A DNA stretch of 64,000 nucleotides from Perkinsus olseni (taxonomy: Eukaryota). Below the pieces are notes generated by a model. The model saw only the letters and a list, made by a program, of their open reading frames with translations. It was not told where the DNA came from and did not search any database. Each line of letters starts with the position of its first letter. Positions within the stretch are counted from its first letter, which is position 1. Positions 16,146-64,000 of this stretch are shown one piece after another. The stretch lies in the NCBI GenBank assembly GCA_013115125.1, contig JABANN010000003.1:1-64000 (forward strand), read 5' to 3'. The position numbers and the translations under genes were made by a program.

Positions 16146-16167
16146 CTGTAAGTCTTACACTGTAAGA
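16146..16167. mobile_element. Putative transposon excision footprint (inverted triplication of CTGTAAGA)
   Basis: CTGTAAG-TCTTACAC-TGTAAGA, one base from the perfect X[1-7]+rcX+X[2-8] pattern. Confidence 0.55.
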
Positions 16168-16517
16168 TAGTACTGTTCTCTGAGAACAGCTTGTGTACGA
16201 TTCCTTCTCGTGGGTTGTATCGAGCTTTAGGTATCATGTGCTCCCTTGAGTGCCTCAGCGGCTCTGAATCAGATCCTAGGGTATCTCAGTAACTTTCTGT
16301 AGACCGTTATCCACGACTTCTCTCATATCAATGTAACCTCTCTGCGATAAATATATTCTCCTCAGAACATGGTTTCATAGTCCACGCGGCTTTTCGATGT
16401 CATTGCTCTAGAAGTATCTGTGAATAATTATCTGTCGTTTGGTGGTACGATCTCATATCGCTATCCACTGGCGTACTTCGCCGTGCCTGCCGCACGATTT
16501 TCATTTGTAAACTAGAA

Positions 16518-19071
16518 ATGGTCTCAAAGATGGCGAGCTCGGTTGCGCAGGGGACTGCAGAGGGGGAGCTAGCTGGGGTATTGAAAGCGAAGCCTACAGA
16601 AATCAGGAAACCAAAACGCTCGATACAATCCCCTTCGCTTGTAGTAGCTTGGCAGTATCGCGAGATGCACCGATGGTTTTCAGCACAAAATGGTAAGCGC
16701 GTGGCCGCTCAAGCTACTGAGACGTGTGGCGGACCTACCATAAAGTGCGATGTGCGTCTGACCAACTGAGAGCTGAGTAGCGCAACTGTTGCTCTTTCAG
16801 GTCATTTTTTGTGTATAGCCCCGTACTGAAAGTTGAAGACAGAACTGAGGGGAACTTGGCTTCAGCGGAGGACGATGACACACGCGCAGCCCAGGCAAAA
16901 CTGATCTACTACTAGTGAGCTGTCCGTGGTTATTGCACCCACCTGGAGAGTCTTTCCTCAGTCCGTCGGACGAGCATTCGCCCATCGAGCAGCGAACACA
17001 GGCCTCCCTGATTGAGGGTGTTGTCCACTTCGCCCAGGCATTCCGACGAGAAGAAGATTGTGACGATGATGTTAATCTCATCACCACCAGGGACCTGGCG
17101 CTTGCTATTAAACAGGTGAGTATCATCTGCTCATCAGGATGGGTGTTCTGACGGTCCTGATTCCAGGTTGAGAAAGACATCTGGTTTACACTGGTTGTTG
17201 AGCGGAAGCCCTTGACAGGATTGGACGGTTGTACGTTGCGCTGGATGCTTAGAGCATTCCCGAGACTGAAATCGAACTCCAGATGTCTGCTACTCTCAGA
17301 TCAGTCTATCCCTTCTTCGCCTGAGTCGGCGCCAAGCTCCGAGAATCAGCGGCAGCGACCGACGCGCGTTACTCCACCGCTGGAGAGCGACGAGGACCCC
17401 CACTTGTCTGCACCACTGCTACAGGCGGTGTTGTCAAATGCGCACGAGGTGTTCACCTTGTTGCACGGGCCGATCGAGAAGTATGTCTTAGCTTCTTGCG
17501 AGCCCTTTACTCTCTCTTGATACGGCAGGTTTTTACATGTCGAGAACGATAAACCCAACGCGATCGATACGCTCGCCGCTCTACTGCACAGCTTTGTGCC
17601 GTCGTAGGCAGCACTCCGTCCATGTTGGTATTTGTAGTTGAAGTGGAGGCAGGTACGTCGAGGTCCTCAGCTACGGTCCTCTCGGCCTCTTCACGGAGCT
17701 CACCGGCTTCAGCTATGGTACCACAGAACTGGCGGGGAAGCGGAGACTTGTTTGTTCTTCAGCGCCAGTGGAGCGGAACACCTTGGTATTGATGCAGGCG
17801 ATGTTGCTTTCCTTACAGGAGAAGCACCCAGACATCAAGGCTTCAGCGGTAAATGTTCTGGTATTCCTAAGCTGCTGTCAGTCTTCACACGGACAGGTTC
17901 TGTTCGATGCTCATCTGCTCCATTCTTCGATCCCTCTGGAAGACATGAAGATCCTCTACTCATATATCGTTTCTACGAGCATAATTGGGTGAGTCTCTAC
18001 GTCGCAGCGCTTCACAGTTGACGGGCGTCCTGGTCCACCAGGTTCCGCTCGGACGCTCCCACGAGCATAGTTTCTTCGACGAAAATGTGCGAGCCGCCCT
18101 ACGATGGGATGGAGGAAGACTCGACATCAATCTGGAAATCGAACCACGTGACAGAGGATATGGCTGACGGGGAAACGGGAACGTGAGAGGAGCTGGTGTC
18201 TCTAGAGGTTCTTTTCGTGCTTGAGAAAAATGGTGTGTCAAGGTTTCTTTTCGGGCCCGAAGCCGGCTCGTCCGAACGTGGAGTCATGCCGGTAGTATAT
18301 CTGCCGTCGCTCGGCAAAGGCAGACTTGTAGCACTCCTTTACCGTGGCCTAATGTTCGTCTTTGTGATCAACGCGATCCCGACTAAGGTGAGGAATCGTA
18401 ACCTTTGGCACCTTGCACCTTTCATGTAGGAGGCGGACTCAGAGCTGTTCTCCTCGCTACAGCAATGGGTGTCTGAATCCAACAGCGTCAGCCAAGTTGC
18501 TCAATTGGTACGACAGCAGTTTGGCCAGGCCATGAGTCTCACGGATGGATACAAGTGAGGCTCTTGGCAGTTCCCTTTCTCGGAAACGGGCCGCCCTTAT
18601 AGGTTCTCATACGCGAACAATACGAATTATGCGTTGCGAGTTTCCAATGACGGCTCTCCTTCACTGAACGGCGAGAGCCCCATGGCCCTCGTCGGCAACG
18701 AGTCTAGCCCCGAGGACTTGGTGCTCTTCAGCACTTTGCGACAAATCACGGTGAGAACGTTGCTGACGGTGTATCTTGTCCGAGCACGTTCTCTCCAGGT
18801 TCATGAGGAAAAGTATCTCGATGCACCTGGCCTGCCTCAAGGGAGTCGATGCCGCGAAGTCTGCTACAAGTCTCCTGAGAACGTGCGAACGCATCCGTCG
18901 CTGCGCGGTTGGAGTTGATCTCTATTTCAGGGCTGGGTATGTGCAAAAGTCTCCCCGTTGAACCGTGAGTTCTATTTGATGCTCGCGAAGCCGGCCATGC
19001 CGTTGGTTCGATGCCAAGAAGAGTGTGAGCGCTTCGCCCGGATGCATCTTTCCAATATATTTACTATGTGA
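16518..19071 (+). CDS. CCZ1: Vacuolar fusion protein CCZ1 (Mon1-Ccz1 Rab7 GEF subunit)
   Basis: Longin N-terminus SFFVYSP...AKLIYY.P...QASLIEGVVHFAQAF...VEKDIWFTLVV; C-terminus RFSYANNTNYAL ... EVCYKS ... LVRCQEECERFARMHLSNIF. Start could be 16518 or 16665. Confidence 0.82.
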
Positions 19072-19294
19072 TGCACTGCATCCGATAGAAGGAATCGCTC
19101 GTTTCTCATCGTAATGATGTATGAGCAGTGTTCTCTTTCGCATCTTTACGAATAGCCATACGCTTATGGGGAAGTTCTTGCTCATCCACCGCTTCGGGCG
19201 CTGGGCTGGCCCGGGAGGTTGTGCTCAGTGCCCTGTACAGAGTGCTATGAGTATTACTTGGGTGTTGGAACGATATCAGTAATCTTCGCAATAA

Positions 19295-19316
19295 CTCCTG
19301 GACCAGGAGTCCTGGT
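19295..19316. mobile_element. Putative transposon excision footprint (perfect inverted triplication of CTCCTGGT)
   Basis: CTCCTGG-ACCAGGAG-TCCTGGT = X[1-7]+revcomp(X)+X[2-8]. Confidence 0.6.
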
Positions 19317-19461
19317 TTAAGGAAATTCTCAGGGCCGCGATACTGCTGCAGCATTAGAATGTGCTGTGATCGTGATGGCCGAAGTGGCGATATGTTTTTT
19401 CAGTTCTGACACATAAAAAGTGAGGGTATCGCCGTGACTCATTCATTGACGGCGGTGCCTA

Positions 19462-20535
19462 ATGGCTGCTCGTTTGACTCTTTATCTGTCATCACTTGAC
19501 CGAGCCGCCCCAGCTCGCATGCCTGAGGTCCTCCAACAAAGCGTCTGGCGATACCTTCGGGAAGCAGGAACGGTTGGATTGCTCAGCGAGGCAATAGAAC
19601 CTCCGCGTAGGCTTGAAGTCTCTGCTCAAGCGGGTTTCTGGATTAAACATTTCTGCGTGGACGAGTGGGATACGTCCATTCTTCTAACATTCCGGAACGA
19701 CGCCCAGAGCAGAGGTCTGTATAAGTATAGAGAAGGCCAAGGCCTGGAGAGAATCAGTGTCGAGCCGATCGATGCGTTCTGCGTCAACTCGGCTCAGGGA
19801 TGTGTCTACGCGTTCCGAGCCCAGCAGCTGTTCTGCATCCGCCACCGAGACCCTCCGTACAATGCTCATCGAATTTGGACGATGTCACCAGATTGGTCGC
19901 CGCCGGGCTTCATGGTGAGCCGAGGAAATCATATCGTATTCGGCTCTCTCCGGCGAGAAGCTCCGAAGCACTGCCGTGGCATCACAGTGCTAACCTTGAG
20001 CGGTCAAGCGGTGCGAGTATCGTCCCTCGACTTCCGCAGCGACATGGAAGCATCTCTAAAGTTCAGGCGTATGCTGATTGACGCATTCCAGGATTGGAGC
20101 AAGGACCTCTGCACACTGGTTTGCATTGGTGAGACTCTACTATCACGGTCCTTAACCAGTGATACATGGCACGACATGAAAATGCGAGGGCAAGTTCGGC
20201 AAATGGCGACGGTGCAGAGCTCAATCATCAACGACCAATTTAGAGACGAGGATGAGACCGCTCCCCCGCTGTTGGCCATTGTGCGCCATAGCTCTCACAA
20301 TCTTGCTCCCGACTCAGAAGTTTTCTATCTAGCGAGATTTGAGGTCGTCGACTTGCATAGAAGCGAGATCGTGGTATCCGTTGCTTGGCTGCAAACGCCT
20401 TGGTGCCCGAACTTGGCTTTTGTTGAACACGCTGTGTACTTCCAAGCATGCGGGCAGGCTATAGACAAGGTGGACGTGTGTCTGACATACGACAAACCGT
20501 TCAGCAGGAGTGAAAGCCCGCGGAAGTTTAGCTGA
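19462..20535 (+). CDS. Intronless hypothetical protein, F-box-like N-terminal motif followed by a beta-rich region
   Basis: 357-aa uninterrupted ORF; MPEVLQQSVWRYL resembles the F-box start LPxExxxxIxxYL; downstream short hydrophobic strands. Confidence 0.6.
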   Translation: MAARLTLYLSSLDRAAPARMPEVLQQSVWRYLREAGTVGLLSEAIEPPRRLEVSAQAGFWIKHFCVDEWDTSILLTFRNDAQSRGLYKYREGQGLERISVEPIDAFCVNSAQGCVYAFRAQQLFCIRHRDPPYNAHRIWTMSPDWSPPGFMVSRGNHIVFGSLRREAPKHCRGITVLTLSGQAVRVSSLDFRSDMEASLKFRRMLIDAFQDWSKDLCTLVCIGETLLSRSLTSDTWHDMKMRGQVRQMATVQSSIINDQFRDEDETAPPLLAIVRHSSHNLAPDSEVFYLARFEVVDLHRSEIVVSVAWLQTPWCPNLAFVEHAVYFQACGQAIDKVDVCLTYDKPFSRSESPRKFS

Positions 20536-20839
20536 GCCTCCAACCGTCGCCCTTTCTACGATTTCACTTCCCGTGCCATTTTCGCTGCTCGCCATGCCTG
20601 TTGCGGCCACCAGACACGTTTGTCACTCTGCCGTCGAGTTGAGGATGGTACTATTAATCATCATTGCAACAACCACTGATTGTGTCTGCAGATCAGTTCC
20701 GGTACTTCTGCCGTAGGAGTACGCATTCTATTTCGTGGCGAATTGTTTGCGAGACGTTGGTTCGGTTTCGACTTAGGGCTGGCCGCTCGTGCCGTGACCT
20801 TATCTGGCGTAGCTTGCTTGTCATTTGCCTCCCGTAGTG

Positions 20840-22385
20840 ATGCCTTCAAAACACCACAATAAGCCGTGCCGCAGTTGGGAAGAAACGGTAGCGTCGGGAT
20901 CATCCATCCCTTTGTGGCCTGTCTTGCAGTGATTCACAAGCTTCTTCTCAGGGGACTTGCCGCTACGGGGACTCCTGTAAATTTGTCCACGCTCAGCGCC
21001 GAGGAGTTCCAGCGTCAAACCCTTTTGGAGGTGAGCTGTACGATGGTCTGTCCAAGGTCATGAGATATCCTTCTTCCAGGTACAGTGTCGGCTTCTCCGT
21101 TCGGCAGCAGTGCTTCTAGTGGCCAAGTATCTGGGAACCTCTTCGCAGCTACAGCAAAGCCGGCGCCATCCCCTTTCGGTGCTGGTAGTATCCCGGCGAC
21201 GCCCTCTCCCTTCGGCGGGGTATCAGGCGGTGCATCTGGTGCGTTCGGGAGTTCGGCCCCCTCACCGTTCGGCGGAGCCGCGGGTACCGGAGCATTCGGT
21301 AGCGCACAGCCATCGCCATCACCATTCGGAAATGCGTCGACGACTAGGCCGAGTCCCTTCGGCAGCACCGGGTCCACCGTATTACCCAGTCCTTTCGGGG
21401 GTGCAGCAGCCAAGCCATCACCATTCGGACAGCCAAGCCCGGCGGCCCCATTAAGCAGCGATGGCTTCCCTGCTGCAGCTGCTGGAGGGTTCAGTACAGC
21501 TGCGTCAACCACGGCAGTAAAGCCTCCGTCAGGGAACTTGCCAGCCGCTACTGTTGCTGGAACCTTGGCCCCGGATGAGAGCAATAGGAAAATAAGAGAA
21601 GTAGGGGAATATGTTCTGTATTGGTATCGAATGTTGTGCGTGGTGCTCTTCAGAACATCGGTGCGGCGTTGAACAAGGGCGAACTTTATCCGTTGTCGTC
21701 CTTCGGGTCGGACGGCCAGGGCAACCTCACGCCTCCTGGAATCGATCTGAGCTTCGAGGAGCTGCGGTTTCAGGATCCTGAGGGCCTACACTTGAGGGAA
21801 ACGATCGCGAAGACAGAAGCGAGTCTCGACAAGATTATGTCGAAGCCAGCATTATCGAAATATTTCGGAGTGGATGGGGTTATGAAATCGGCATCTCCTT
21901 TTGGTGTTGGTACTACCACCGCGTCACCGTTCGGAGATGCATCTGCTCAAGCCAAACCATCGCCTTTTGGAACCGCAGCGGCGCAGAAACCCTCCCCATT
22001 CCGTGCAGCAGCAAGTCCTCCCCCGGCAGCTTCGCCGTTCGGTGGGTTCGGTGGCGTCCAGTCTACTGGGTCCAGCCCTTTCGGAGGATTTGGCGGCCCT
22101 TTCGGCGGGAAGCCATCGCCGTTCGGTGCCGTGAAAGGGGGCCCCTTCGGTGGAACTCAATCGACTGCCATCCCCGAGTTGCCGTGGCCCGAGAACTTGG
22201 TGGCTCGGCCGGGGATTCCTGCCAGCAAGATGCCATCGTGGATCCCTCGTGCACCTCTAGCCCTTCTGCCGGAGATCAAGCCGCCAGCGAAATTATCTGA
22301 GAAGGATGTTGAAAGTTACAAGAGTCCAGAGTTCTCATTAGATGCATTCCCATCACTGCCCCCTACCATTGAGTTGTTAACGTAA
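20840..22385 (+). CDS. NUP42: Nucleoporin Nup42/NUPL2 (CG1/Amo1-like): CCCH zinc finger, SPFG repeats, Gle1-binding C-terminus
   Basis: Spliced N-terminus MPSKHHNKPCRSWEET|GTCRYGDSCKFVH (intron 20888-20951); YPLSSFG..DLSFEELRF; 14 SPFG repeats; C-terminal LSEKDVESYKSPEFSLDAFPSLPPTIELL. Confidence 0.85.
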
Positions 22386-22535
22386 TCCTCCCTTTCTATA
22401 AGCGTTGCGCATTTTCAATATTCCGAGGTCTAGAAGCCTGTCCTCCCTATTGGTCGTTAGTGCGATAAGTGAACTCCATCATGGGGTCCGCAGGACAGAT
22501 GCGTCTCCGGTTTCCAGATACGAACTTCCATCATC

Positions 22536-23493
22536 ATGATCAATGGGTCTTCCAAGATGATTCGGACGAAGTTATCAGAAGACATGATTCCCCGTGTATC
22601 GGGTTCGAGCGGGCAAATTACCATCGACGAGTCGTGTATGGTAAATGGATACGACGGTACGCTACTTGAGAGGTTACAGGGGAGCTGGATGAGAAAATGC
22701 ACGTCGGGACTCGACATATCCGTTCGAAGAGGCGCCGGAGCTACTGGGCCACTGGAGCCAGAAGTTGAGGCTTTTCCGCGAGCAGGAGGTTCTATGGGCC
22801 GTTGTGATTCATTGTCGGGGAGCTTCATAGTGACTGAAAGTGACGATCGTGGCACAAACCAGGTCTCGCAACCGGGGGTAGCAAAGGCGGACTCGGAGGT
22901 CGATTATCTCGCTATGTCTGTCGCTCGGATGCGGCTGATGGATGCAGGTTGCTTTGTCGGCTGGATCCTCGCTGTGGATCCCACGTCAGTTTTCGGGTCG
23001 GCCAAGTACTCCTACGGTTTGCGTGCGTCCTGTGTTATTCACGGGTACTGCCGCCCCTTACTCATTGAGATTCCTCGTAATCGTCGCAACGGCTTGGATG
23101 ACTTGGTAGGGGCGCCTCTTCCGGATCTTCGGTGGGAGATGGAGAGTGGGGAAGAGAGCGTCGACAGGCTCGGCGTGTTCCTGCGGTTTCTAGTAGCGCA
23201 ACTTGTTGGGGTGAGCGTGAAGCTGAGTAAGCTGAAGTGCCTGCGACCTGATCGAGTCGTATTCGAGAGGCTAGATGTTCTGCTCAAGTGAGATCCCGCC
23301 AAGGACTCCTTCTGTCAATAGTCCCATATGCAGGTACAAGCCTTTGTTAAATCTTTTCAGAGAAAGTCAGTTCTGCGCTGAATCTAATGGTGATCGTTCA
23401 TCTTGCCACATCAGTGATCGAGAGGATGGGACGATCGCGGTCGATTTGACATGCGAGGAATTAGAAACATGTGAACTCCTGAATATTCATTGA
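22536..23493 (+). CDS. Hypothetical protein
   Basis: 251-aa ORF plus a spliced last exon (YKPLLNLF...LLNIH*). No family recognised; start uncertain. Confidence 0.5.
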
Positions 23494-23587
23494 CAAGTTT
23501 CCTTCTTTAGCTAATGCGCTCTTGAGTTGGTCATTAACCCCCATGTGTCACGTGATCTCGGGGAGTTGAGGGATTTGAACCGGCCTC

Positions 23588-26552
<2,965 letters not shown>

Positions 26553-26711
26553 CGTAGTCCGAGAGAACTGTAGCATTCAAGCTGTCATAGTTGTGAGCAT
26601 CTTTCGGCAATGTCAATGAGATCATTTCCATGCCGACGAATTGAGGTATTCTCTCTATGGCGTTGTTGTGTTGTTGTAGTCCGTTCTCGCAGCACTGTCA
26701 GTTCCCCAAGT

Positions 26712-27992
26712 ATGACTATGCATCCACTAACCAGTGGGTTGCGCGACTACGTCACTGCCGCCGACCATACCAGGTGATAATTTCATTTTCGTTCGAAGGC
26801 TTTCGCGGAGGGCGGAATTAGATACGACGGCTTGGCGGATGGTTTTATACGAGTGGATGTGACACATAGCAATTTACAGGCCCGAGTTCATGATGCGACC
26901 CTCTCTCTGGATGCTCCCATCAGTTAGCTTTTGTATCCACCGATGTACGCTGAAGCCCTGGTGCATTCAGGCTCGGTGAAGCAAAAGCTGTACAAAAGAA
27001 ATGGAACCACCGTTGACCACATGCAGCTATTCCTGAGGCGCGGGGACGGGAGCATGATTTTCCTCTACGATGACAAGCTCACTTTGAGGTAGCCATCGCT
27101 GTCAACTCGCTCCGCCATGCCCATTCGTACAAGGGATTTCGGGGCTGGGAATGGCGACTCGATCCACATCAAAGACACTGATCCCTATAGCGTATCGGCT
27201 GGCGGGGCCCTGGAAAATCTGGAGCTGGTACCTGGGACGCGAGCCGTATGCCAATCATATACTGCTTTGAGGTTAGGTTGATAAATACGAAATGGACGAT
27301 GAAACGTATGATAAACGGACTAACACACTGAGGCACTACATCCGGGAACAGAGGAAGATTAACCCGAAGTTCAAGCTCAAGTTCGGGCCTCAGAAAACGG
27401 AGAATGGTCGGCACCGGGGTTGTTGAGGATCCCCCGCCGAACACGTTTTGATCGTCAGAAAGCGAGAATGCTGCAGTTCCGGAGAGACCGCCTACGCCAG
27501 ATAATGCAAAGGAAAAGTAGAGACCCTGAGCACGTTACCAGCTGAGGGGAACTAGCAGGTATGCGATAGGCAAGCGGTGCGAGGTTAATCCTGGCGGCCG
27601 TCGTGGGGAAGTGGCTTACCGCGGACCAGTGAGGGGACTCCCTAAAGGCAAGAATTGATTGTCTTATTCTTGCTGCCATAGCTCATATTAGGCACGTGGA
27701 TCGGCGTTCGCCTTGATGAGCCACAGGGTAGGTCCGATGGCACTGGTCCCGACGGAAAGAAGTACTTCGACTGTCCTATGGGGTAACCTATTTTTCGGGC
27801 TGTTCGATTTTGTTGCCAGTTTCGAAACCTCAGGCCTGGCTATGGTTGCTTCGTGCGATGTGAGAATGTAAGGGCGGAGACTTTTCTCAGCGCTTCCTGT
27901 ATTGTAGTGTCTCACGCACTCAGGTCAGCGTCGGAGAAGAGTTCGCGCCGACTGATCCTTTCGCGGAGCTATCGTCTGAGGATGAACTTTGA
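26712..27992 (+). CDS. TBCB: Tubulin-folding cofactor B (UBL + CAP-Gly)
   Basis: UBL ([18 protein letters not shown]), IKDTDPYS...[22 protein letters not shown]-Gly [40 protein letters not shown], acidic end EDEL*. Confidence 0.92.
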
Positions 27993-28097
27993 GGCTCTCT
28001 GTCCGGTGTGTTTGTTGAGAATTAAGCATCACTTCTGAGCTCGGTTGTGTTTTCCTCTAGAAATCTGTGCCAGGGTTGTCATATTTCCCCATTTGTA

Positions 28098-29747: not shown

Positions 29748-31523
29748 TCAGACGCCACTCGGTTGTTGATGTTGACGTCGGGTGGACTGGAAGTGGCCCG
29801 CAATATAGGATGGCTGACTGGTGATAACTCCAGTCGTCCCGATGCGTCCAGTCCCCTGTGATGGCTTTATATCAGCTGCTTTTGGCGTCATTCTCGGGAA
29901 GGCCGTACGACCAGGCGCTCGAGCAATCGGTGTCACCCCAACGGCCGTCAACCAATCGGTTGGCATGCTGGTAGCTGTCTGATCAACTTCTTCATAGGGT
30001 TGAATCTGCTTGTCGAGATGCCAGTGGGTGGCCTTGACGTTGCCGTACTTTTCCTGAGAGCCAAGACGAATGAGCGTCTCCTTCAAGCCCTGCTTCACTT
30101 GAGAGACTCGGCGCTGCTTGAGGGAAGATTCGCTACGCTCGCGAGCCACTGGCCAATTGGCAACCGAGTTGAACTCTTCCTCGAAGGGGGAGTAGCTCCT
30201 GAAGTCGTGTATGCTCTCCTGGCCCATGAACCGGGGGAACTCCTCTTCAAAAGGGCTCACAGTGGTGTCCTCGGGCAAAGGAGTCGGGTCGATGTGCTCA
30301 GCAGTCGGAAAGCTACCCACTCTCGCTCTTAGACCCGGGTTGACATTGCTTTGCATCCATGTCTGAGATAACATATCGACGTTCTGTAGATGAGGGAAGT
30401 CTTCGTCGAAAGGGCTGACCGTAGGATCTTCTGGCAGGGGCGAGTAGTCGACGTTCTTAGTTGGGAAGGTACCCATGCTGACGGTGAGATCCGGGTTCAC
30501 ATTGCTCTGGCAATACCCCTTCATATGAGGGAAGTCTTCGTCGAATGGGCTCTCTGTCATGTCCTCCGGGAGTGGCCTGGAATCCCATTTCTTCGTCGGC
30601 ATCGTACCGTCCTTTGCACGCAACGTGGGGTTGACGTTGCTCTCCCAGTAGCTGCTTGGTAGAGGAAAGTGCTCGTCAAAAGGGCTGACACTGTCATCGT
30701 CAGGCAGAGGCTTCTTATTAATGTTCTTAGTGGGCAGAGTACTATGAGCCACCGGTAGAGTGGGGTTCACGTTGCTAGTCACCATGTGCTGAAGTCGGTT
30801 CTCGTCAACTGGAATCGGCCACTCATCATCAAAGGGGCTCACAGAGTTGTCTTCATCCAGTGGCGTCGTATCCGCGTGAACCGTAGGGAACGTGTTGCTC
30901 CTCACGCGCAAGCCCTTGTTGATATTGCTCTGAGTCAAAGTCTTGTGGTCAGTCAAGACGTCCCACATATCGTCGAATGGGCTCACGGCGAAGTCTTCTG
31001 GGATGGGCGCCATACCAATCTTCTTGCTAGGCAGACTGCCAATACTAACAGTCAGGTTAGGGTTGACGTTGCTCATCTTATGACTCTGTAGAATCGGGAA
31101 CTCCTCGTCGAACGGGCTGACGGACGCATCTTCGGGTAGGGGAGTTCTGTCAATATGCTTGGTCGGAAAGGTCCCGATGTGAACCTTCAGGTTTGGGTTC
31201 ACATTACTACTCTGAACGTCCTGGGACAGACGACGATGGTGCTTCTTGCTAGTGCTATGCCTCCTACCAGCAGTAGTGTGAGAGATCGAACTTGGGGACA
31301 TCATTGGCATTTCCGCTATGATGCCTGTGTACTTGGAAGAGGTCGAGCCCGAAGGCAAGTGCAAGCCCTTCGAAATGGCTTTGCTAGCTTTATCGCCAAG
31401 AGCAGCGTCCTCCTGATACCCTCCTCCGTGTAGCTGAGGTAGCTGGTAGTGAGACCAACCGCCATGGCCGGTGGGGTGGATGTACTGCAGAGGCACGTCC
31501 GACTTGTAAGAATGGTGGTCCAT
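29748..31523 (-). CDS. Intronless protein with seven ~45-52 aa SNVNP...SPFDEEFP repeats
   Basis: Long uninterrupted ORF (first ATG of MDHHSYK at 31523; track extends it to 31670). Repeats are conserved at protein level with synonymous divergence. Confidence 0.85.
   Translation of the reverse strand: MDHHSYKSDVPLQYIHPTGHGGWSHYQLPQLHGGGYQEDAALGDKASKAISKGLHLPSGSTSSKYTGIIAEMPMMSPSSISHTTAGRRHSTSKKHHRRLSQDVQSSNVNPNLKVHIGTFPTKHIDRTPLPEDASVSPFDEEFPILQSHKMSNVNPNLTVSIGSLPSKKIGMAPIPEDFAVSPFDDMWDVLTDHKTLTQSNINKGLRVRSNTFPTVHADTTPLDEDNSVSPFDDEWPIPVDENRLQHMVTSNVNPTLPVAHSTLPTKNINKKPLPDDDSVSPFDEHFPLPSSYWESNVNPTLRAKDGTMPTKKWDSRPLPEDMTESPFDEDFPHMKGYCQSNVNPDLTVSMGTFPTKNVDYSPLPEDPTVSPFDEDFPHLQNVDMLSQTWMQSNVNPGLRARVGSFPTAEHIDPTPLPEDTTVSPFEEEFPRFMGQESIHDFRSYSPFEEEFNSVANWPVARERSESSLKQRRVSQVKQGLKETLIRLGSQEKYGNVKATHWHLDKQIQPYEEVDQTATSMPTDWLTAVGVTPIARAPGRTAFPRMTPKAADIKPSQGTGRIGTTGVITSQPSYIAGHFQSTRRQHQQPSGV
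30171..31208 (-). repeat. Coding tandem repeat, 7 full units plus 1 partial
   Basis: Consensus SN[VI]NPxLxVxxG[TS]FPTKxxDxxPLPEDxxVSPFD[ED]xFP, plus a final YSPFEEEF. Confidence 0.9.
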
Positions 31524-31880
31524 ACGACCATACTTGTTGGTGGTCCTCGAGATCACAGCGCTGGCAGGCTGCTGGACGAGGAACATGCGTTGACTTATCA
31601 AATATAATCGCCTAAGGTGCGGCAACACATCCCGCGTAGTCTGGTTGGCTCTGCAAGTCCGAACGTTCAAACGTGACCCGCTACATGCCCGGCATCGACC
31701 TGAATGAGCCCCCTCCCCGCTATGGCTATGACGTATAGCCTCGTCTTTGACAACTCACTCACGGCTCACCTTCTTTGACACGATAACAATTCCACACTTG
31801 ATCACCACGTCTGAACGCGTGCCAGCTATCCGACAGAGAAGAGGCGCTCGTCATTGTAATCGACAGTAACTGCGGTCATC

Positions 31881-40410: not shown

Positions 40411-42521
40411 ATGTCGTCTTTAGCACAGCGGATATCCTCCACGGTAGCGAAGCGAGTAGTAGCTTCCCCAGAACCGGCCCCGCTAGCAATATACTGTAAG
40501 TTCGGGTGATCTGAGGTGTCATGCATAGTCCGGCCTGCCCGTATCCCGATCTCGAGCCTTCGGTATCTCCAGATTCGAGTACGGGCTATTGATTGCAGTA
40601 GCGTGGAGGGAATGACGTCACACGCTGAGTTTAGGCTATAAGAAGCACTTCATGAGGCAGCAGCAGATTAAGGAGAAAATCAAGGGCCTACAGAACCCGC
40701 AGAAGGCCGACTGCGGACCACTGGGAGAGTATAATTTGCGATTCGCCGGGTGTCTCGAACGCTTCCGTCACAGGTGGTGGCGATGGTTCCGAGATAGGAG
40801 AATCCGCATCAAGAAGCGGAAGCAGTATATATGAGCAATTGAATAACAAGCCCATGTACGTTGTTTCTGTTCCCTGTTGTCGTTCGCGTTGGGGCTCTCG
40901 ATCGGTTAGTTTTCCGGTATCTGCAGTACTGTCCAACTCCCTGTTATCGTCTTCCACGGTGATGAGTTCACCTGCTACCCGTAATCTGTGCTTAACAATT
41001 CCCAATCGGGTCACCGCAACTGCCAGCGGGGCCGTGAGGAATCTGTCGACCTCGGCGCCGAGATTTTACACGCAAGAGGAGATTAATACTGCGCAAAACT
41101 TCTTCCAGCTGATGATGGATGGTAATTGAGGCAAGGGATGGGCTGACTATGTGACTTGTTGGGCAAACCAATATTCTTTAATTCAGGCGACATCACTGGA
41201 GCTGCTAAACTCGCGGAGCCCCAAGCGAAAACACTCGGTATGGGCGTAGAGGAGTTCATGGCTAAACAGGCTAGCGAACGAGCATACCTTATTTACAGGT
41301 GATAATGGGTGACTTAGAATGTGGGAGTTCTGCCTAATAATTCAGACTCCGGAGGGCTCTCTGAAGCTTGAACTATTGGTCATCCATATAGCTGTCACAT
41401 GTGTCGCAGTAGTGATAGACGTCAGGTTTTCCTCATCGGAGCGCCAAGAGGCAATCAGGCTCGCTATGGACGGTGAAGGCTTCGATCAGGGACTGACTGA
41501 GGAAGAGCGACAAGCGAATACTTCAGGTGCGGGGCACGGCTCCGCGCAGTAGCTCCGATAAGACCGTTTTTTCTTGAACTACGAACTGCCGTTTCTCCCT
41601 CGTGACCACGAGTTCTACCCGGCGGAGTAGTACTGCCAGCTGTCATAGGTCTCCGTTTGGACTCACAAGGCAGCAATCTGCACATTTGAGGTCGTTTCTT
41701 TCAGCGTCCGGTATGGCTATGTGCAAGCCTGAGCTTATCCACGAGATCTTGGAGTCGGAAGGAAATAAGTTCTGGCTGCCGCTTTGCGAAGAGCATTACA
41801 ACAGGATCCAACAGGGTAGTCCGAGTCGGTTGGATTCGCTGGTTACATTTTGCGGTTCAGTTATCAAGATGTGCCGCACATCTCTGGCGTTTGGCGATGT
41901 CTGCCCTGCGCCTACGAGGGACTATCAGCTGCTAGGACGCTCCTATCCCTCCAGGATTATGCTGGGGAAGAGCGGCGCTGTTTTGCAGACGTGAGCAGCT
42001 AATTCCAATCTATTCGTGGAGTGGATGTTGAATCATAGATTTGCAGGTACATATCGCGTCTCATGGCCGGGTCGCGGTCGTTCTCTCCACAAGCTATGGC
42101 AAACCATGAGGCCGCTTCTCAGCTATTTGACACGCAACTTCGTGGTTTGGGACCGGCAGATGGGCCGCTGGAGAAGCCCGATGCGGATCAGTCGGATCGG
42201 TTAGAGGAATTTAAGGAGTGGGCGGAGCAAAGGGAAGAAGCCGCACAGAAACATCAGCGACTCGTGAGTTTTTCTGCCGCTGGATCACGCTGGGGAAGTC
42301 ACTAGCCATCAGTTGCTTCACCTGACATGCGACGTCTCTCGATACATGCTAGCACCGCCCGAGGGCCGAGCACTCATGGAGCTTGCGAAGCTGGTGATCA
42401 CTCCAGAAGATGAGAAGGAGAAAGCGTAGGATTAGGCAGCGGTAATGCATCACTATCAGCGCAAACTTCTCCTCTTAGGTATACATCCGGAGTCATCCAG
42501 TCGACTTTGGATATGATGTAA
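40411..42521 (+). CDS. Hypothetical multi-exon protein, possibly mitochondrial (may be two genes)
   Basis: MSSLAQRISSTVAKRVV presequence-like start; series of GT-AG-bounded exons; last exon AYTSGVIQSTLDMM*. Confidence 0.45.
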
Positions 42522-54062: not shown

Positions 54063-54336
54063 GTGTTAGAGCACGGAGATGATATGCCGGATTTGTGCAG
54101 CGGTAGGGTACAGATCTGGAGATCTTGCGCGTCTTGCATAACTTAGATTTCCTCAGATTTGCTTGGCACGACTGGGGAATATTTGAGTACAGAAGTTTTG
54201 GGGCCTGTTTAGGGAGTGTCCAACTAATTGGAATCGACGCCGGTATACCATATTACGTATTAAAGTCAATTCTGGAAGCATTCGGGCTCTAAGAAATCTC
54301 AAGATAGGTTCACTTGAGACCCTTTATGTGGTTCCC

Positions 54337-55923: not shown

Positions 55924-56439
55924 TACTCTCCGTTGTATTTGACCGACCTTTATTGGTGTGAGCTGTGTATTCATATTGGATACTGAAGTCGATAAGTAGC
56001 TGACTTGACCCATGTCTGATCAATTCGATTTCTGGAATATGATGTCTATCGATTTTATAGCATGACGGGGATTAAAGGAAATGGGTGCGGTTAGTTAATA
56101 TGGTCGCGATGGTTGTCGTGGATATGGCATTGCTCTCGACAGTCGCGAGCCCTTCTACTTCTCGTTGACAATCACCTCGGCGGATGTGGCAGTCATTGCG
56201 GCCAGAGTTCGTCGAGAACGATGACACCGATCGTTGGTCGCTGTGGTCGGCAGCAGGAACTTGCGCTGCAAGTCATATCATACCGTGTCTCCCTGCGCAA
56301 AGCTCTGGGCACCACAGCTACGGCTACCCCAGCCAATCGTCTCATAATCATTGAACATCGTAGTCTTCGGTCTTGTGCTATTCGGCTGGCTCTCGACTCT
56401 ATACTCCTTTTCGCAGCTCTTTCTTCTATTTTACTAAAC

Positions 56440-58209
56440 ATGCTTTCTTTCACATTGGCCCTTCTGGCCTCGACTGGGCTCAGTGCAACCGCCGCACCTC
56501 CGTCTGCTCCTCGCGACCGTCTAGATCACGATCACTGTACGGCTACTGCCGTTGACTGTGCAGCCACTGCTGATGGTGGTTGCATAGCCGCGACTAGTGC
56601 TGACGGAAGTCCTCTTGATTTCCGTATGGTTCATGTCCCCCCGAAGACGTACGGGCCAGGCGAGAAGAGAGCTGTTTACAAGCAGTTTCAGAACTACCCG
56701 AGGATCGTCGATGCCTCCCGAGCCCCGAGTTATGCGCCAACCTCGCCCGATCAGAAGCCTAGTATACCTATTGGTTACATCGATATGCCTGAGGGCACGA
56801 CTTACGGCTACTGGGATGCCGCTTATGGTGTCATGAATGAGGCTGGCTTGTCAATGGGTGAAAGCAGCTGTAGCGGTCGCTTGAGCTCTGTTCCCAAGGG
56901 AGACGGGCCGGACGGCAGCGGTGCTCTATTCTGGGTCGGTGAGCTGTCTGACATCGCTCTCGAAGTTTGCTCGACTGCTAGGTGTGCCATCCAGACCATG
57001 GGAAAGCTGGCTGAGGAGCATGGTTTCTATGGTTCTGTCGGTGTGAAGGAGGCTGGTGAGGCTTTGACCATTGCCGATGGTACCGAGGTTTGGGTATTCC
57101 ACATCTTACCTGATGATACTGCCGAAGGAGCAGTGTGGGCCGCTGAGAGAGTCCCCAAGGGTCATGCAACTATAGTTCCTAACGTCTTCGTTATCCGAGA
57201 GATCGATCCGACTGACGGCGACAACTTCATGTTCTCTGACAACATCTTCGATATTGCTTTGAGACTTGGCTGGTGGAATGGTGAAGGACTTCTGGACTTC
57301 GCCGCCACCTACAGTGTTAGTGAATACAACAACCCCTACTACTCTGGCCGTCGTGTGTGGAGAGGTCTTTCTCTCTTCGCCCCCTCGCTCAATCTTGACC
57401 CTACTCTTGGCGTCGAATGGGACCATCCAACTTACCCGTTCTCGGTGGAGCCGGATGAGCCTGTTACAATCGACTTCATGAAGCGTCTATACAGGGATCA
57501 TATGGAGGGCACAGCTTACGATCTGACTGATCATGTCGTTGCTGGTGGGCCTTTCAAGACTCCCAATAGATATGCCGGTGGCCGTGCTGAAGCTACTTTC
57601 CAGCATGGTGCTTGGGAAAGGGCCATCTCTCTCTATCGTACTATGTATTCTTACATTTGTGTCACGTACAAGGACTACAATGTTATCTACTTCGCACCTA
57701 TGACACCCCATGCAAGTGTCTATATCCCGATCATTGTGAAGCACGATCAGACTGTCAAGTCCATTCCCGCTCTTGAGAACGCTTGGCAAGGAGAGTTCAG
57801 CACCAAGTCTCTCTGGTGGGCTTCTGAGGCGGTTTCTAATGTCATGGATCTGAAGTACATGTATATGGTCAACGATGTCAGGAAGGCCCAGTATGAGATT
57901 GAGCACCAGGTTGATGTGATGATGAGCACTAAGACCCCGGACGAGGTCGAGACAGAAATGGATGGATTCGGCGACTATGTCACTGAGAAGTGGTTGAATC
58001 TGCATTATACTCTCCTCGGAAAGTATCAGAACGGTTACTCTGATTGGGGTTATACTAAGGTCGGTTATGGTCCGTCCACCGAGTGGCTCCGTGCTGCCGG
58101 CTTCCAGGACTTTGATGCTACTCCGGAGCAGTTTGCCGCTCTGAGACATCGGTATACTGAGACTCAAAAGGAGGCCGATGAGATCCGAAATTCTGCTTTG
58201 GGTGCGTAA
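56440..58209 (+). CDS. Peptidase family C69 dipeptidase (Ntn-hydrolase), intronless, with signal peptide
   Basis: Signal peptide MLSFTLALLASTGLSATA; H-CTATAV nucleophile Cys; MNEAGLSMGESS; ARCAIQTMGKLAEEHGF; GEALTIADGTEVWVFHI; YSGRRVW; AGGPFKTPNRY; WERAISLYRT. Confidence 0.92.
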   Translation: MLSFTLALLASTGLSATAAPPSAPRDRLDHDHCTATAVDCAATADGGCIAATSADGSPLDFRMVHVPPKTYGPGEKRAVYKQFQNYPRIVDASRAPSYAPTSPDQKPSIPIGYIDMPEGTTYGYWDAAYGVMNEAGLSMGESSCSGRLSSVPKGDGPDGSGALFWVGELSDIALEVCSTARCAIQTMGKLAEEHGFYGSVGVKEAGEALTIADGTEVWVFHILPDDTAEGAVWAAERVPKGHATIVPNVFVIREIDPTDGDNFMFSDNIFDIALRLGWWNGEGLLDFAATYSVSEYNNPYYSGRRVWRGLSLFAPSLNLDPTLGVEWDHPTYPFSVEPDEPVTIDFMKRLYRDHMEGTAYDLTDHVVAGGPFKTPNRYAGGRAEATFQHGAWERAISLYRTMYSYICVTYKDYNVIYFAPMTPHASVYIPIIVKHDQTVKSIPALENAWQGEFSTKSLWWASEAVSNVMDLKYMYMVNDVRKAQYEIEHQVDVMMSTKTPDEVETEMDGFGDYVTEKWLNLHYTLLGKYQNGYSDWGYTKVGYGPSTEWLRAAGFQDFDATPEQFAALRHRYTETQKEADEIRNSALGA

Positions 58210-58556
58210 GTTAACAATCATTTTACAACTTTTGAAGCTCTAGAGGTTCTGCTCTATCGGATATACGATGGGACCGAATGGTTTGTTCGAACAGCCATTA
58301 GGTCCAATGCGTTGACAAGGCGCGTATTCTCTGCTATTGCTATCTTCATCGCTAATTATTGTTTAAGCTGAACTTGATTCAGTAGGAGATGTTTCTCCAG
58401 AGTGGCCGAGGCGAGTTTTGAGTTAACGTGTAGTCAAGGGCTAGATATCCGTTGGTGAGCTGTCTTTCTCCCGACCACGCTCGGCCGTAGGACCGGTTGA
58501 GAGTAAGGGCAGGTCACAGGTCCAGGATGAAATGAGAGTGTTGTTATTCATACCCA

Positions 58557-61500
58557 ATGGTTCAACAGAAAAACCTAACGGCTCTAGTCAAGGAAATTAG
58601 AGCTCGACAGCAAGGTCACGGTGTCGGTGACAAACACTACATCACCCAATGCATCGGAGAAATCCAGAGGGAACTTTCACAGCCGAATGTGGTGGTGAAG
58701 AGCACCGCTGTCCTTAAAATGGCATACGTGAGATCTCTGTTGCAGAAGCAGTAGGTATGGGTGCGCCCCTTCTCAGCTCTGTGCCCAGGGACACGACCTG
58801 TCCTCCTTGGCATTCGAAGTCCTTGAGGTGATGCATAGACCATCATAGTTGGACGGGTTGAGCATACAGGGGTGCTGCCATGCAGGTCATGTCGGCCACA
58901 GGCTTCGAACTCAAGCGGCCGGGCTTCCTTGCTGCGTGTATCTGCTTCGATGGGAATACTGAAGCTGCTCTTTTGGCGGTGAACCTGTTCAAGAAGGTAC
59001 TTCCAGGTTTCATTCAGGAGGCTCCTGAAGGTCTATCTGGTTAGGGTCTGTCAAACCCCAGAGCGTCTGTGGTTGAGAAAGGCGCCCTTCTTACAACTCT
59101 CGCTTGCATTGCAACGCAGGATATGGCCAGAGATGTCGGAGAGCACGAAGTGAGCTCAGTATAGGGTACTGACTACAGTGCAAGGATCCTGGAAGGTTAT
59201 GAAGTTACTGGCTACCCCCAATCCCTACCTCCGGAAGAAGGCGGTACTCTGCACGTTCCGTTTGTGCGAAAAGTACCCACAACTTCTGCACAGCGCTTTC
59301 CCAAAGTTCAAGTGCGCAAACGAGTTGTTGAGAGAATCTGTGACGTGTTCGTGTGTTCCTTTAGGGATCTGCTCTCTGATGAAGATCAGGGAGTTCTCAC
59401 TGCAACAGTCACCGCAGTCACAGAAATCGCGGCAAGGAGCCCCAGGAACTGTCTGGTGGGGAGGGGCGACCGTACCTTGCTACGTGAACTCCGTTTCTTC
59501 GCAGATCCTGGTACCACAATTGTGGCATCTCTTGGTCAACACCCGCAACAATTGGCTCACCATAAAACTTCTGAAGCTCTTTCGACTTCTATGTCCTGTG
59601 GAGGATAGACTGCCGGGGAAGCTGGTGGGTGCCACTCAGCCTTCCTGACGGGAGTCCGCGCTATTCCTCAGGCGAAACCACTCATCAATCTCCTACAGAG
59701 CACGAAGGCAAAGTCCGTTGAGGTGGAGTGCATTCTCACAGGGATTGACTTCCTTCCTCTCGAACACGAGGCCATAGAGGGAGAATGCCTACCAAGGCTG
59801 AAGGACTTGTTGACCAGCGTCGATAGAAACCTCCGTTTTCTTGCTCTCGGCATGCTGGAGAGGTAGAAGTATCCTCTCACATTCGCGGTACTCCAAAGTA
59901 AGGTTCCTAGTGAGGCATCGAGAGGGAAGTGGTACTGAGAATAAAGGAAATATTTGGCACCCCTTCATCGTGGAAGGACTGAAAGATGTCCACGACAAAT
60001 CGATTCGGTAGTCAGCTTGACTTCCACCTCCGTGCAGCTCCAGGATGCATCATCCGTGTATAGCCGGCTGTCGCTGCGAATACTCAACTTGATAATCTCC
60101 TCGGAGAATCTCCAGACGATGGTGGAAGCGCTGTTACTCAACGACGTTGAGCAGACAGGAAGTAGCAGCAGCAGTTCGAAACAACTTCCTCGCGTACGCT
60201 GTCTGAGGTACCGACGATGCTTCGCTGGATGAAGGCGGCACCGTCTCAGAGGACATGAAAGATGACTTCGTGAGGACGATTCTCAAAGTGCGGTTGTGTC
60301 CCTCCAGCGTTTGCCTAAGAGCTTTCTCTGTAGCTATGTTCTCGAGAGCGCTATGCGCTGGTGGAAGACTTTGGTTGGTACTTGTTGATGCTGGTCAAAT
60401 GTGCCGCCAAAGTCTCTACGCGGGATGTGACGAGCAGAGAGATTGCTCGGCAATTCATGGACATCTGCGACGGAGTCGAGCAGGTTGCCATTCCATTGCT
60501 TCTCCCTCTGGTGCGGCTATGGTTTGCCCGCAGGTCCGTGGCTACGGAGTGACGCTAGCGTGTTCGCTGCTGAACTCAGCTGTCGCCTCTGATGTGCATT
60601 CGCTCGAACCCCCGGAACCTAACTCGGACGAAGTAGGGCCTGTGAGGCTCCTCTCATGTTCCTGAAGCTGTTCAGGAACGTGGGACGGAACGGAACTGGG
60701 TACTGTCTTGCCCGCATTTCTTGCGGTGCTGCATGTGGGTAGTTGGGAGGTATCTGTATCGCGCCCGGGCAACCTCCACAATGGACAACCAAAGCGATGT
60801 TGATCCCACGAGGGCTATCATCGAAGTACCTGGACATAGCGGCCCGCCGTGCCATTCTGTAGACGGGCCTCTGTCTCAGCTCTCAAGGACCGGACCAGAC
60901 TTAACGCTGGATGGTATTTGGGCTGCATTTCACATTGCAGCCAACGCAAAGGCGTCTGGGAATCCGAATGCAACGGAACAGGTGAGGCTCTACTGTGTTT
61001 GGAAGCTTAAACGAAAGATCGTTTTGGCAGATATCCTGTCTGTATGGGCAGACCCTCCCAGCTCTGCGGGCGCTGGCCAGAAAACATCGATGTGCTCTAG
61101 ATGTCTCTCTGGAATCTGAGTCGGAGTTAATTACGCATGTGATGGATGCATTAGTACTAGCGAGGAAGCGCGCTTTCTATGCAGCATACGCGTAGGTTGC
61201 GGCGGACACGGGCCTAGCTGAGAAGCTTTTTCCCGCCGCGGAGCACCTGCCTGAGCCTCCGAAGCTTGTTGCGATCGACCTAACGACTCCACTAATCTCC
61301 TTACCTCCGGAGATGTTAAGAGATGATAAAACATCGGCCTTTGGCGCCCGAGGGGTCTATACACTTGTGGACGGCACTCGCTTGGTTGGCCGCCAGGCCA
61401 GTGTTGCTCATGGCGTTGCCTCCCATCGCATGGACAGTCAGGTAGGGTGTGTCTAGCTCGCGCTTGAGTTCATAACGCTCATTCTTGCTCTTGTGCTCAG

Positions 61501-61774
61501 TCGCATCTCTCCACTTCGTCAGAGTACAGCAGCCGTCATACGAGCCCTACGCTAGAAGCTTCCCTCAGGGCATGCCCTAGTCGGGTGGATCCCCTAGCAG
61601 ACCTCCCGCAAGCTCCGAAGAACATCACGTACACCATGTCTCGGTGATTCTTTTCCATCCATGAGTATATCATGTCATGATTTCCTCTTCGATACCTATT
61701 AAGGTCGTTGTGTAGCATACGATGTGGGGACTCATACGAAAAGGGCACAGGCTGCGCCGCGCGGCCAATCCTGA
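58557..61774 (+). CDS. AP3D1: AP-3 complex subunit delta
   Basis: QKNLTALVKEIRA, KSTAVLKMAY, PYLRKKAVL, NNWLTIKLLKLFRLLCPVEDRLPGKL, STKAKSVEVECI, DRNLRFLAL, EDFGWYL. 3' end approximate. Confidence 0.88.
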
Positions 61775-62475
61775 AGGTTAGTGTTAAAGCGATTTTTGTC
61801 TTCGGGACCGATCGGACCGATCGTCCCCGCCCGCTCACGCTATTTGCCGGGCCGGGAATAAATTCAACTTGAGTCCCGACCGAGTATTCGAGTTCGAACC
61901 CTAGGTTACGCTCGTTCAGTGAGCGACGTCCACATTATTGAACAAGAATGCTGAATCGCTCGGCGTCAATTGCATTAACCTAGTCAAGAGCCCGCCTGCT
62001 TCAGAGATAATCTCAGACCTGCTGCTTCGTGTTGAAGATGGATCGACCCATTTTGCCGTTTTGTGTTGCGAGTTGTCTACTTCGGATTCCCGGGTTGGAA
62101 GACGGACGCTAGCCCACAGGGATCTTGGGATGTCTCGAGTTCGCTGCTCCTCGTTAAGAATGTGCCACCCTCGTGGAGTTCAGCAAAGTGGTGATTGTAA
62201 CGCCGTCGCGGTGAATGGTAGAGCTGCACCGCGTGGCGGGTGAATATAGCTGCATCAAGCGCGGATGGAACCGGCGGGCATTCGCTCGGTGCAGGCGCTG
62301 AGATGAGCGTGGGGGTTCGGTCGGTTGTGCGCTAATAAAAGGCGAGTTCCTAGTCGCATCACAGTCCTGCATTGACACACTACCGAGACGCGAGTGCGCC
62401 GGTTGCAGTTGTCTTATCGGAATGGAGTTGACAATCACCTCATCAAGTTCTTTTTTCTTGGACTTCCGTTCAACA

Positions 62476-64000
62476 ATGAGCGTTTCTTCCGACTTTCTGC
62501 AACCTGGTCACTGTACTGCTACTGCTGTAGATGGGGCGGCCACAGCTGACGGCGGCTGCATCGCAGCCACGAGTGCCGATGGTACCCCTTTGGACTTCCG
62601 CCTCGTGTATGCCATCCCGTCAAGCAGGATAATATTAATGCAGTGACGGTCTTCTCTAGGTACATTCCTCCGAAGACGTACGGCCCTAATGGGAAGCGAG
62701 CTATTTACAAGCAGTTCCAGGCCTATCCTCGTATCGTAGATGCGGCGAGGGCCCCCAGCTACGCCCCCACCAAGCCTGATCAGGAGCCTAGTAATCCCAT
62801 CGGTTATATCGACATGCCTGAAGGGACAACTTACGGATATTGGGAAGCTGCCTACGGCCTCATGAACGAGGCTGGTCTTTGCATGGGCGAGAGTAGCTGC
62901 AGTGGGCGTCTCGCCTCGATCCCTATAGGTGAGTGCGATTAGTCAGTAGCCTAAAGACGCGGACCAATTTTTCTGTTCCTTTTGTAGATGAAACCCCGAA
63001 CGGTGCTCTATTCTGGGTTGGAGAGCTGGCAAGCGTCGCTCTGGAGCTTTGTTCCACCGCCAGGAGTGCCATCGAAACCATGGGTCGTTTGGCAGAGGAG
63101 CACGGCTTCTACGGAACCACCGAGGTTGAGGAGGCTGGAGAGGCCTTGACTGTAGCTGACGGCGACGCGGCTTGGGTTTTCCACATCCTTGCTGACGACA
63201 CTGGTAAAGGGGCTATCTGGGCAGCCGAGAAGGTCCCTAAAGGCCACGCGACCATTGTTCCCAATGTTTTCGTCATTCGTGACATCGATCCCGAAGACAA
63301 GGAGAACTTCATGTTCTCTAAGAACATTTTTGATGTTGCGAAGAGGTAAGGTCTTCGCTGTGCTCCTAGTGTTCAGTCCTAGTGGGTTCTTTGCCTCAGG
63401 TTAGGTTGGTGGGATGGTGCTGGTCTTTTGGATTTCACCAAAACATACAGTGTTGGCGAGTGAGCTAGAAGCCTAGCGACAGAGTAGATCATCTCGAGAC
63501 TCCTAGATACACCCATCCCTATTATGCCGGTCGTCGTTTGTGGAGAGCATTTTCCTTGTGGGCCCCCTCCCAGAACTTCGATCCGAAGCTTGGCGTTGAA
63601 GTCGAGCGACCAACATACCCTTTCTCTGTGAAGCCTGATGAGCCGATAACCCTTGACCAGATGAAGAGGTTATACCGAGATCACATGGAGGGTACTCAGT
63701 ATGATTTGACCAGCCACGCGACAGCTGGCGGAGCTTTTAGAACCCCTAACACTGTTAGGCTAACAGGTAAGTTGCCCACGCTTTTTATTGGGGGTTCGAG
63801 GGGAATAATATTGTTATGTATTGGTCGTAGATACGCCGAAGGCGAAGCCGAAGATTCGATTGAGTACGGTGCCTGGGAGCGAGCGATCTCTCTTTTCCGG
63901 ACTCAGTACGCTTATATTGCTGTGAGCTACAAGGGACGTCCCGGGGTGCTCAACTTCGCCATAGGTGAGCAACATGCTCGACGTCTTTTTTATCTCATAC
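62476..64000 (+). pseudogene. Second C69 dipeptidase, intron-containing, with a 14-nt frameshifting insertion (allele may be disrupted); runs off window
   Basis: HCTATAVDGAATADGGCIAATSADG, highly similar to the 56440 copy; at least 5 GT-AG introns; the insertion at ~63752-63765 shifts the frame to a TGA at 63923-63925 if the ancestral splice sites are used. Confidence 0.7.
63745..63766. mobile_element. Putative transposon excision footprint (perfect inverted triplication of CCTAACAG)
   Basis: CCTAACA-CTGTTAGG-CTAACAG; collapsing it to a single CCTAACAG restores TPNRY as in the paralogue. Confidence 0.65.

Follow-up and report, generated by a model that had tools for sequence, protein, structure and literature searches.

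What process wrote the same 22-nt arrangement three times into one stretch of DNA from the shellfish parasite Perkinsus olseni is the question raised by the first 64,000 nucleotides of contig JABANN010000003.1 (assembly GCA_013115125.1, positions 1 to 64,000, forward strand), hereafter the window. In this arrangement the first seven bases of an 8-mer, X, are followed by the complete reverse complement of X and then by its last seven bases, X[1-7]+revcomp(X)+X[2-8]. A preliminary description of the window, made from its letters alone, had picked out three such loci and proposed that they are scars of an excised hairpin-forming transposon. Direct reading of the sequence bears out the geometry that it reported, two of the three loci being perfect and one being a single base off:

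Scar 1, 16146..16167: CTGTAAGTCTTACACTGTAAGA; one base off the scheme, with C at 16160 where G is predicted
Scar 2, 19295..19316: CTCCTGGACCAGGAGTCCTGGT; perfect X[1-7]+revcomp(X)+X[2-8]
Scar 3, 63745..63766: CCTAACACTGTTAGGCTAACAG; perfect X[1-7]+revcomp(X)+X[2-8]; closes a coding exon, as its final 22 bases, in the second of two C69 dipeptidase genes

In all three scars, X[1-7] and X[2-8] are flanking, partial direct copies of the 8-mer. The three 22-mers are real, recurrent insertion mutations, specific to an X of eight bases (k=8), and are not motifs.

The recurrence can be judged from an exhaustive scan of the 64,000-base window for X[1..k-1]+revcomp(X)+X[2..k] with k=4-12. Perfect matches numbered 21 at k=4, where ~16 are expected (64000/4^6), one at k=5 and two at k=8, with none at k=6, k=7 or k=9-12. 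Mismatch-tolerant counts, given below for 0, at most 1, at most 2 and at most 3 mismatches, were compared with the mean of 30 dinucleotide-preserving shuffles:

k=7: observed 0/0/2/27; shuffle mean 0.0/0.2/2.5/27.7
k=8: observed 2/3/5/11; shuffle mean 0.0/0.03/0.37/2.63
k=9: observed 0/0/0/1; shuffle mean 0/0.03/0.03/0.43

The excess is real and, within the window, peaks at k=8 only, with k=7 and k=9 at expectation. The preliminary description had held that the lack of a peak at k=8 would speak against its reading, and the sole excess in the window lies at that length; its worry that copies had been missed is also answered, the exhaustive scan adding no further perfect or one-off copy in the window. 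Chance predicts ~2.4e-4 perfect k=8 copies per window (64000/4^14), and the 30 shuffles produced 0. Taken with assembly artefact and with a selected DNA or RNA motif, chance makes up an explanation that we consider very improbable indeed, close to refuted, as the following observations on scars 1 and 3 bear out.

The history of scar 3 can be read from the gene that contains it, one of two C69 dipeptidase paralogues that lie 6 kb apart:

First C69 dipeptidase gene, 56095-58206, + strand: one uninterrupted open reading frame (ORF)
Second C69 dipeptidase gene, ~62400-64000, + strand: several short introns
Intron of the second gene, 63767..63830, + strand: 64 nt, GTAAGT...TCGTAG; predicted, its position taken from protein collinearity; none in the neighbouring paralogue

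The paralogues are 72-75% identical in DNA (repeat scan), and the pair could have arisen through a retrogene copy, or through intron loss or gain. The first is 98% identical (329/335) to a P. olseni protein, and the second is closest to a Perkinsus marinus protein (77%), a product of the second gene from the same species not having been found in protein searches. A tblastn alignment of the intronless paralogue with positions 61500-64000 places the interruption of the second gene right after ...FRTPN, where the paralogue continues RYAGG. No residue stands between TPN (or TPT/TPV) and R/S-Y in 9/9 aligned relatives, drawn from Perkinsus and others; the ORF of one relative that runs into the intron (P0035) reads TPN-R-Y, and the three N-R-Y codons are uninterrupted in the DNA of the intronless paralogue. 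The window, in turn, reads ...CCT AAC, then the remainder of scar 3, then GTAAGT at 63767, with the acceptor ending at 63830. The single 8-mer before the donor at 63767 is collinear with all relatives and the 14 extra bases are not. Judged by this collinearity, scar 3 is a derived insertion of +14 nt in a coding exon, and the net gain of 14 nt that had been claimed from geometry is borne out for this scar by the nine relatives, the read-through ORF and the paralogue DNA.

The consequences for the gene speak against a selected motif. Under predicted splicing with consensus donor and acceptor, scar 3 shifts the frame and leads to a stop 31 residues later; among all GT/AG pairs with the same acceptor, the only in-frame form uses a weak donor at 63771, at the cost of six additional residues. 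A motif is therefore unlikely to have been selected at a site where, with consensus splice sites, the insertion shifts the frame and interrupts a conserved coding exon. The exon downstream of scar 3 remains conserved, so the insertion would postdate the split from the relatives by a long way. The window has no match to any Rfam family, and the folds of the three loci are weak (z -1.75, -1.91 and -0.26); on these grounds, and because scar 3 disrupts an exon, a functional RNA or DNA element was rejected. Tandem duplication of a 14-nt unit was also rejected, 22 nt being shorter than two such units; 28 nt is attained at 16140-16167 alone, where the two differences are A/T swaps, the kind predicted by inverted copying and not by direct copying.

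An assembly artefact is contradicted by scar 1, which lies within the 3′ untranslated part of the + strand transcript 14868-16521. RNA contigs of three runs (X7, X13 and X10, from three studies) are spliced copies of the window at an identity of at least 99%, and they cover scar 1 with 0 differences. Because scar 1 is identical in the RNA contigs of three runs from three independent studies, it is not an assembly artefact. Scar 2 falls between the end of the upstream contig (~19094, from summed exon lengths) and the next transcript start (19402-19406). It is seen in no run that is independent of possible source samples, a point in favour of an artefact at this locus; the fraction of sampled words from 15000-21000 present in the DNA-type runs X1-X6 is 1.00, and all of these runs are possibly the source samples themselves. 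The likeness of two of the target sites to each other is a further point for chance, artefact or motif. Positions 16140-16152 and 63746-63758, at the sites of scars 1 and 3, match over a 13-nt stretch at all but one base (CTAACACTGT followed by A or T and then AG), in a register relative to each scar that differs; the match may reflect a target preference, or a coincidence of splice-signal-like words.

From the scars as observed, their specificity for k=8 and the derivation of scar 3, we infer a transposon, hairpins and a repair route, a reading to which we give about an even chance of being right. The three 22-mers would be the repair scars of an excised cut-and-paste DNA transposon with 8-bp target-site duplications and hairpin-capped flanks. 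The element would have stood between two copies of the 8-mer X, and its excision would have left the two strands of each flank joined as a hairpin with one unpaired base at the tip. Both hairpins would then have been opened at least 8 nt from the tip, giving 3′ tails with revcomp(X) on one end and X on the other; these tails would have annealed, with flaps trimmed and gaps filled, and the product of such annealing would be X[1-7]+revcomp(X)+X[2-8], a net +14 nt. The 8-bp duplication and the flank hairpins point to a hAT-like element; alternatively, the transposon may have been a Mutator-like element with an 8-bp duplication.

The details of the scars agree with this excision reading. A hand derivation indicates that an opened flank hairpin with one unpaired tip base yields an odd palindrome centred on the complement of the element-adjoining base, and that two such unfolded hairpins with an 8-base duplication, once annealed, give the exact 22-mer, as the preliminary description had argued. 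The central base is the complement of the outermost X base at 5/6 centres (19302, 19309, 63752, 63759 and 16153), the sixth centre, 16160, retaining the original base (X1). The perfect scars 2 and 3 are two-fold symmetric, which is expected if both ends are processed alike. Scar 1 is exact when written as a direct repeat with a 7-base inverted insert, that is, a 7-nt tract of P-nucleotides (inverted copies of the flank), with the right-hand X1, and hence the right copy, intact; retention of X1 at 16160 is also an ordinary footprint form, and scar 1 then fits exactly. The one-base offset of the nick that this geometry implies has reportedly been described for Hermes, by Zhou et al. in 2004. The hairpin-footprint geometry put forward in the preliminary description also agrees with the description of Ac/Ds footprints in the available part of PMC5873905.

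The main rival is template switching in replication or repair synthesis with no transposon, which we regard as unlikely, though a serious contender. Here a strand would turn to the opposite strand, copy ~8 bases back and turn again, producing a micro-scale direct-inverted-direct triplication. All three loci can be written as an inverted copy of adjacent sequence with a return to the original template, and scar 1 is exact as a double turn if both turns 'advance by one', with 3 nt (ACA) in common with the return point and thus 3 nt of microhomology at one switch. At scars 2 and 3, however, microhomology at the would-be switch points, as read from the sequence, is 0-1 nt, and the two turns demand opposite rules (one base ahead, then one behind), where two-ended hairpins give the symmetry free. 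The complement of the original base at five of the six centres is likewise a hairpin signature. Hairpin-creating short template switches are documented in other genomes (PMC5453318, PMC7954356), but a fixed length is not suggested in the available parts of those papers, whereas all three events in the window have the same length and geometry and the k=7 and k=9 classes are empty.

The wider supply of palindromes in the window also bears on template switching. Palindromes with one central base and arms of at least 7 nt number 14, against 4.37 +/- 2.21 in 200 shuffles, 0/200 of which reach 14; no such excess is seen for those with 0 or 2 central bases (3 vs an expected 3.9 and 3 vs 4.2, respectively). 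The three scars account for five of the 14. For the remaining nine the excess is only marginal (8/200 shuffles reach 9), and this modest surplus counts in favour of template switching:

16173..16189: palindrome of 17 nt, one central base, 8-nt arms; 6 nt past scar 1
1049..1065: palindrome, one central base, 8-nt arms; candidate only
41867..41883: palindrome, one central base, 8-nt arms; candidate only
59013..59029: palindrome, one central base, 8-nt arms; candidate only
15707..15721: palindrome, one central base, 7-nt arms; shares its 3′ untranslated region with scar 1; candidate only
Starts at 8929, 26305, 60137 and 61809: other single-centre palindromes with 7-nt arms; candidates only

The palindrome at 16173-16189 is a possible candidate for a one-sided scar of the same process, and it is covered without differences by the RNA contigs that cover scar 1; its likeness to hAT terminal repeats was given no weight, being a post hoc comparison. 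With looser settings (arms of at least 6, loops of at most 8) a scan returned five forward-reverse-forward arrangements where 20 shuffles gave 0.75, the two beyond the scars being at 1068 and 63302. The former (1068-1094) directly follows the 1049 palindrome. The latter lies in coding sequence to which the dipeptidase paralogue aligns (query 335-388, NFMFS in both), and was taken as chance. Scar 1 itself is inside a 29-nt near-palindrome (16139-16167) whose centres, 16146, 16153 and 16160, are 7 nt apart, and it stands 6 nt from the 16173 palindrome; together with the adjacent 1049 and 1068 arrangements this suggests a local palindrome-making process, again in favour of template switching. Across the 12 palindromic loci, nearest-neighbour distances indicate no clustering and are about those of random placement, except for the 16146/16173 pair. 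A different kind of palindrome, at 60658-60679, has 9-nt arms, the longest in the window, and a 4-nt loop, and has TTCAGGA in common with the 59013 palindrome.

A number of results weigh against the excision of a hAT-like transposon, beginning with the search for the element itself. A transposase or other transposon domain was found in 0/184 stop-to-stop ORFs of at least 90 amino acids in the window. Nor do the 64 kb contain an interspersed repeat, a miniature inverted-repeat transposable element (MITE), or a pair of terminal inverted repeats with an 8-bp duplication, with repeats confined to those inside one protein and to the pair of dipeptidase paralogues; the search for hAT transposases and MITEs that the preliminary description suggested has therefore come up empty within the window. 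No occupied site, consisting of the 8-mer, an element and the 8-mer again, was seen. The contrast of empty and occupied alleles that had been hoped for is thus confined to an empty state at scar 3, deduced from relatives and the paralogue. RNA contigs show no sequence variation over 8000-27999 and no empty or occupied allele there, and when metagenomes were scanned with the exon that precedes scar 3, the 80 loci recovered had identities of 55% or less, none of them coming from a near relative.

The hAT target consensus is nTnnnnAn, and each of the three 8-mers has one of its two fixed bases in either orientation, three sites being too few for a judgement. The pattern CTnnn(A/G)G, in which the preliminary description saw a hint of target preference, is indeed common to the 8-mers, but carries little weight with three 8-mers and free orientation. 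A literature search found nothing on hAT in Perkinsus; the elements described for P. marinus are Dada, with 6-7 bp duplications, and Merlin remnants.

The footprints themselves raise a further difficulty. In a scan of the window that covered undeleted footprint forms for an 8-bp duplication, there were 0 intermediate forms with 3-7 P-nucleotides, and the shortest form (2 P-nucleotides) occurred 6 times against 2.8 in 5 shuffles, which is not significant; a spectrum dominated by short P-tracts was not seen. The absence of intermediate forms fits the earlier claim of one dominant repair outcome, but it is unlike every hAT system described in the available part of PMC5873905, and for every outcome to be full-length, repair would have to follow an unusual route. 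The companion claim that the system was recently active has a single observation behind it, namely that the scars are nearly undecayed. Because each jump leaves one footprint, footprints can outnumber elements along a lineage, and an element-free window is therefore weak evidence against excision and not a refutation.

An element-free window agrees with template switching, which needs no element, and also with breaks made by a host or domesticated nuclease or by abortive 'hit-and-run' integration, a third explanation that we consider quite improbable. In this account 8-base-staggered, hairpin-capped breaks would be healed by the same repair route with no resident element, so that the same geometric evidence supports it as supports excision, and the 13-nt stretch at 16140-16152 and 63746-63758 could mean a sequence preference. 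However, that stretch does not keep the same register at the two scars, a candidate enzyme did not emerge, and integration is the simplest source of a direct duplication of 6-8 bases. We know of no process that makes element-free, 8-base-staggered, hairpin-capped breaks, no literature search having been aimed at it.

A broader proposal, which we hold to be rather improbable, is that a mutational process peculiar to Perkinsus produces +14-nt forward-reverse-forward insertions of uniform form at many sites, whether its cause is an element or a nuclease. One possible cause is a hAT-like element, highly mobile and low in copy number, at whose donor sites the hairpins would invariably unfold in full and heal by annealing; another is a nuclease that makes 8-base-staggered, hairpin-capped breaks with no element involved. 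The density of 3 per 64 kb, if general, could amount to thousands per genome. Such a process would keep producing frameshifts, of which the dipeptidase gene gives an example, and would keep adding hairpin-forming sequence to untranslated regions; it would also offer a natural read-out of how perkinsid DNA hairpins are opened and joined.

The genomic setting of the scars is that of a eukaryotic region with few long ORFs, the genes recognized in the window being WD40/NLE, LMBR1, sestrin, PIGA, an ion channel, an adaptin and the two C69 dipeptidases. Among the junctions listed from the RNA contigs (15 of 57), the introns are GT..AG and 42-69 nt long. The same 8-9 loose letters (CTTGGCTCA) precede the + strand transcript starts at 11086, 14868, 16643 and 20811 in the contigs of several runs. 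We take CTTGGCTCA to be the 3′ part of the dinoflagellate/perkinsid spliced leader, and its placement before transcript starts indicates spliced-leader trans-splicing onto + strand genes.

Over 8000-27999, contigs from different years and studies, carrying two organism codes (A and B), match the window at an identity of at least 99% with no listed difference, and this uniformity over 20 kb suggests one widely sampled clonal line. Within that interval a stretch of ~4 kb, 22674-26675, has almost no depth in the three RNA-type runs and holds ORFs of 250-270 residues (22473-23288, + strand; 24574-25335, - strand); either the stretch is silent or these samples do not express it. Elsewhere, at 29748-31670 on the - strand, a 640-residue ORF with no Pfam match contains about seven repeats with a period of 135-159 nt, each carrying a motif like SNVNP...PLPED..VSPFDE.FP.

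Whatever their cause, the scars matter for the genes around them, scar 3 having altered a conserved dipeptidase gene, so that the process reaches coding sequence. If they are excision footprints, they would be indirect evidence of recent cut-and-paste transposition of a hAT-like element in a perkinsid, adding to the Dada and Merlin-type elements that are the only ones found described for this group. Repair would in that case open hairpins far from the tip and join them via the target duplication, unlike the mixed outcomes of plants and yeast, and past transposition events could be counted in any genome by a sequence pattern that is simple to recognize. Without an element behind them, the scars would represent an insertion mutation of stereotyped form.

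Several known systems invite comparison. In V(D)J coding joints, P-nucleotides result from hairpin opening by Artemis and, as in the scars, are palindromic additions from a closed hairpin end nicked off its tip. The hairpins made by RAG, however, give even palindromes, usually of 1-4 nt, with no flanking 8-bp duplication, whereas the palindromes of the scars are odd, have 7-8 nt per arm, and overlap in pairs. Excision footprints built from such inverted flank copies are also left by hAT transposons, namely Ac/Ds and, further, hobo, Hermes and Tam3. The footprints of Ac/Ds, as set out in the available part of PMC5873905, resemble the scars in that two partial copies of the 8-bp duplication flank the inverted flank copies, and in the complementarity of the repair intermediates, as proposed here for the scars. 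The same source describes palindromic P-nucleotide insertions centred on the complement of the element-adjoining base, with yeast arms as long as 20 nt, microhomology at 85-100% of Arabidopsis and yeast joints, and a dominance of short footprint forms in yeast, plants and Candida. Unlike Ac/Ds footprints, all three scars are maximal, with the P-tracts merged into one full revcomp(X) and no short forms; they are also uniform, where the hAT systems covered in that part of PMC5873905 leave many different footprints, mostly with short P-tracts. The exact 22-nt outcome was not found as a recurrent product in the literature searched, although Yu et al. 2004, Lazarow et al. 2012 or supplementary footprint tables may have it. 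Muta1, a Mutator-like element, makes target duplications of 8-9 bp and forms a flank hairpin at excision, like the proposed source of the scars, but according to the available part of PMC5499845 precise excision is dominant, unlike the scars, with >90% of excisions precise in yeast. Template-switch mutations in the four-point model, as presented in the available parts of PMC5453318 and PMC7954356, share with the scars a local inverted copy made in one event and perfect hairpin-forming repeats; the scars differ from them in being identical in length and register in three events and in having central bases that follow the hairpin rule.

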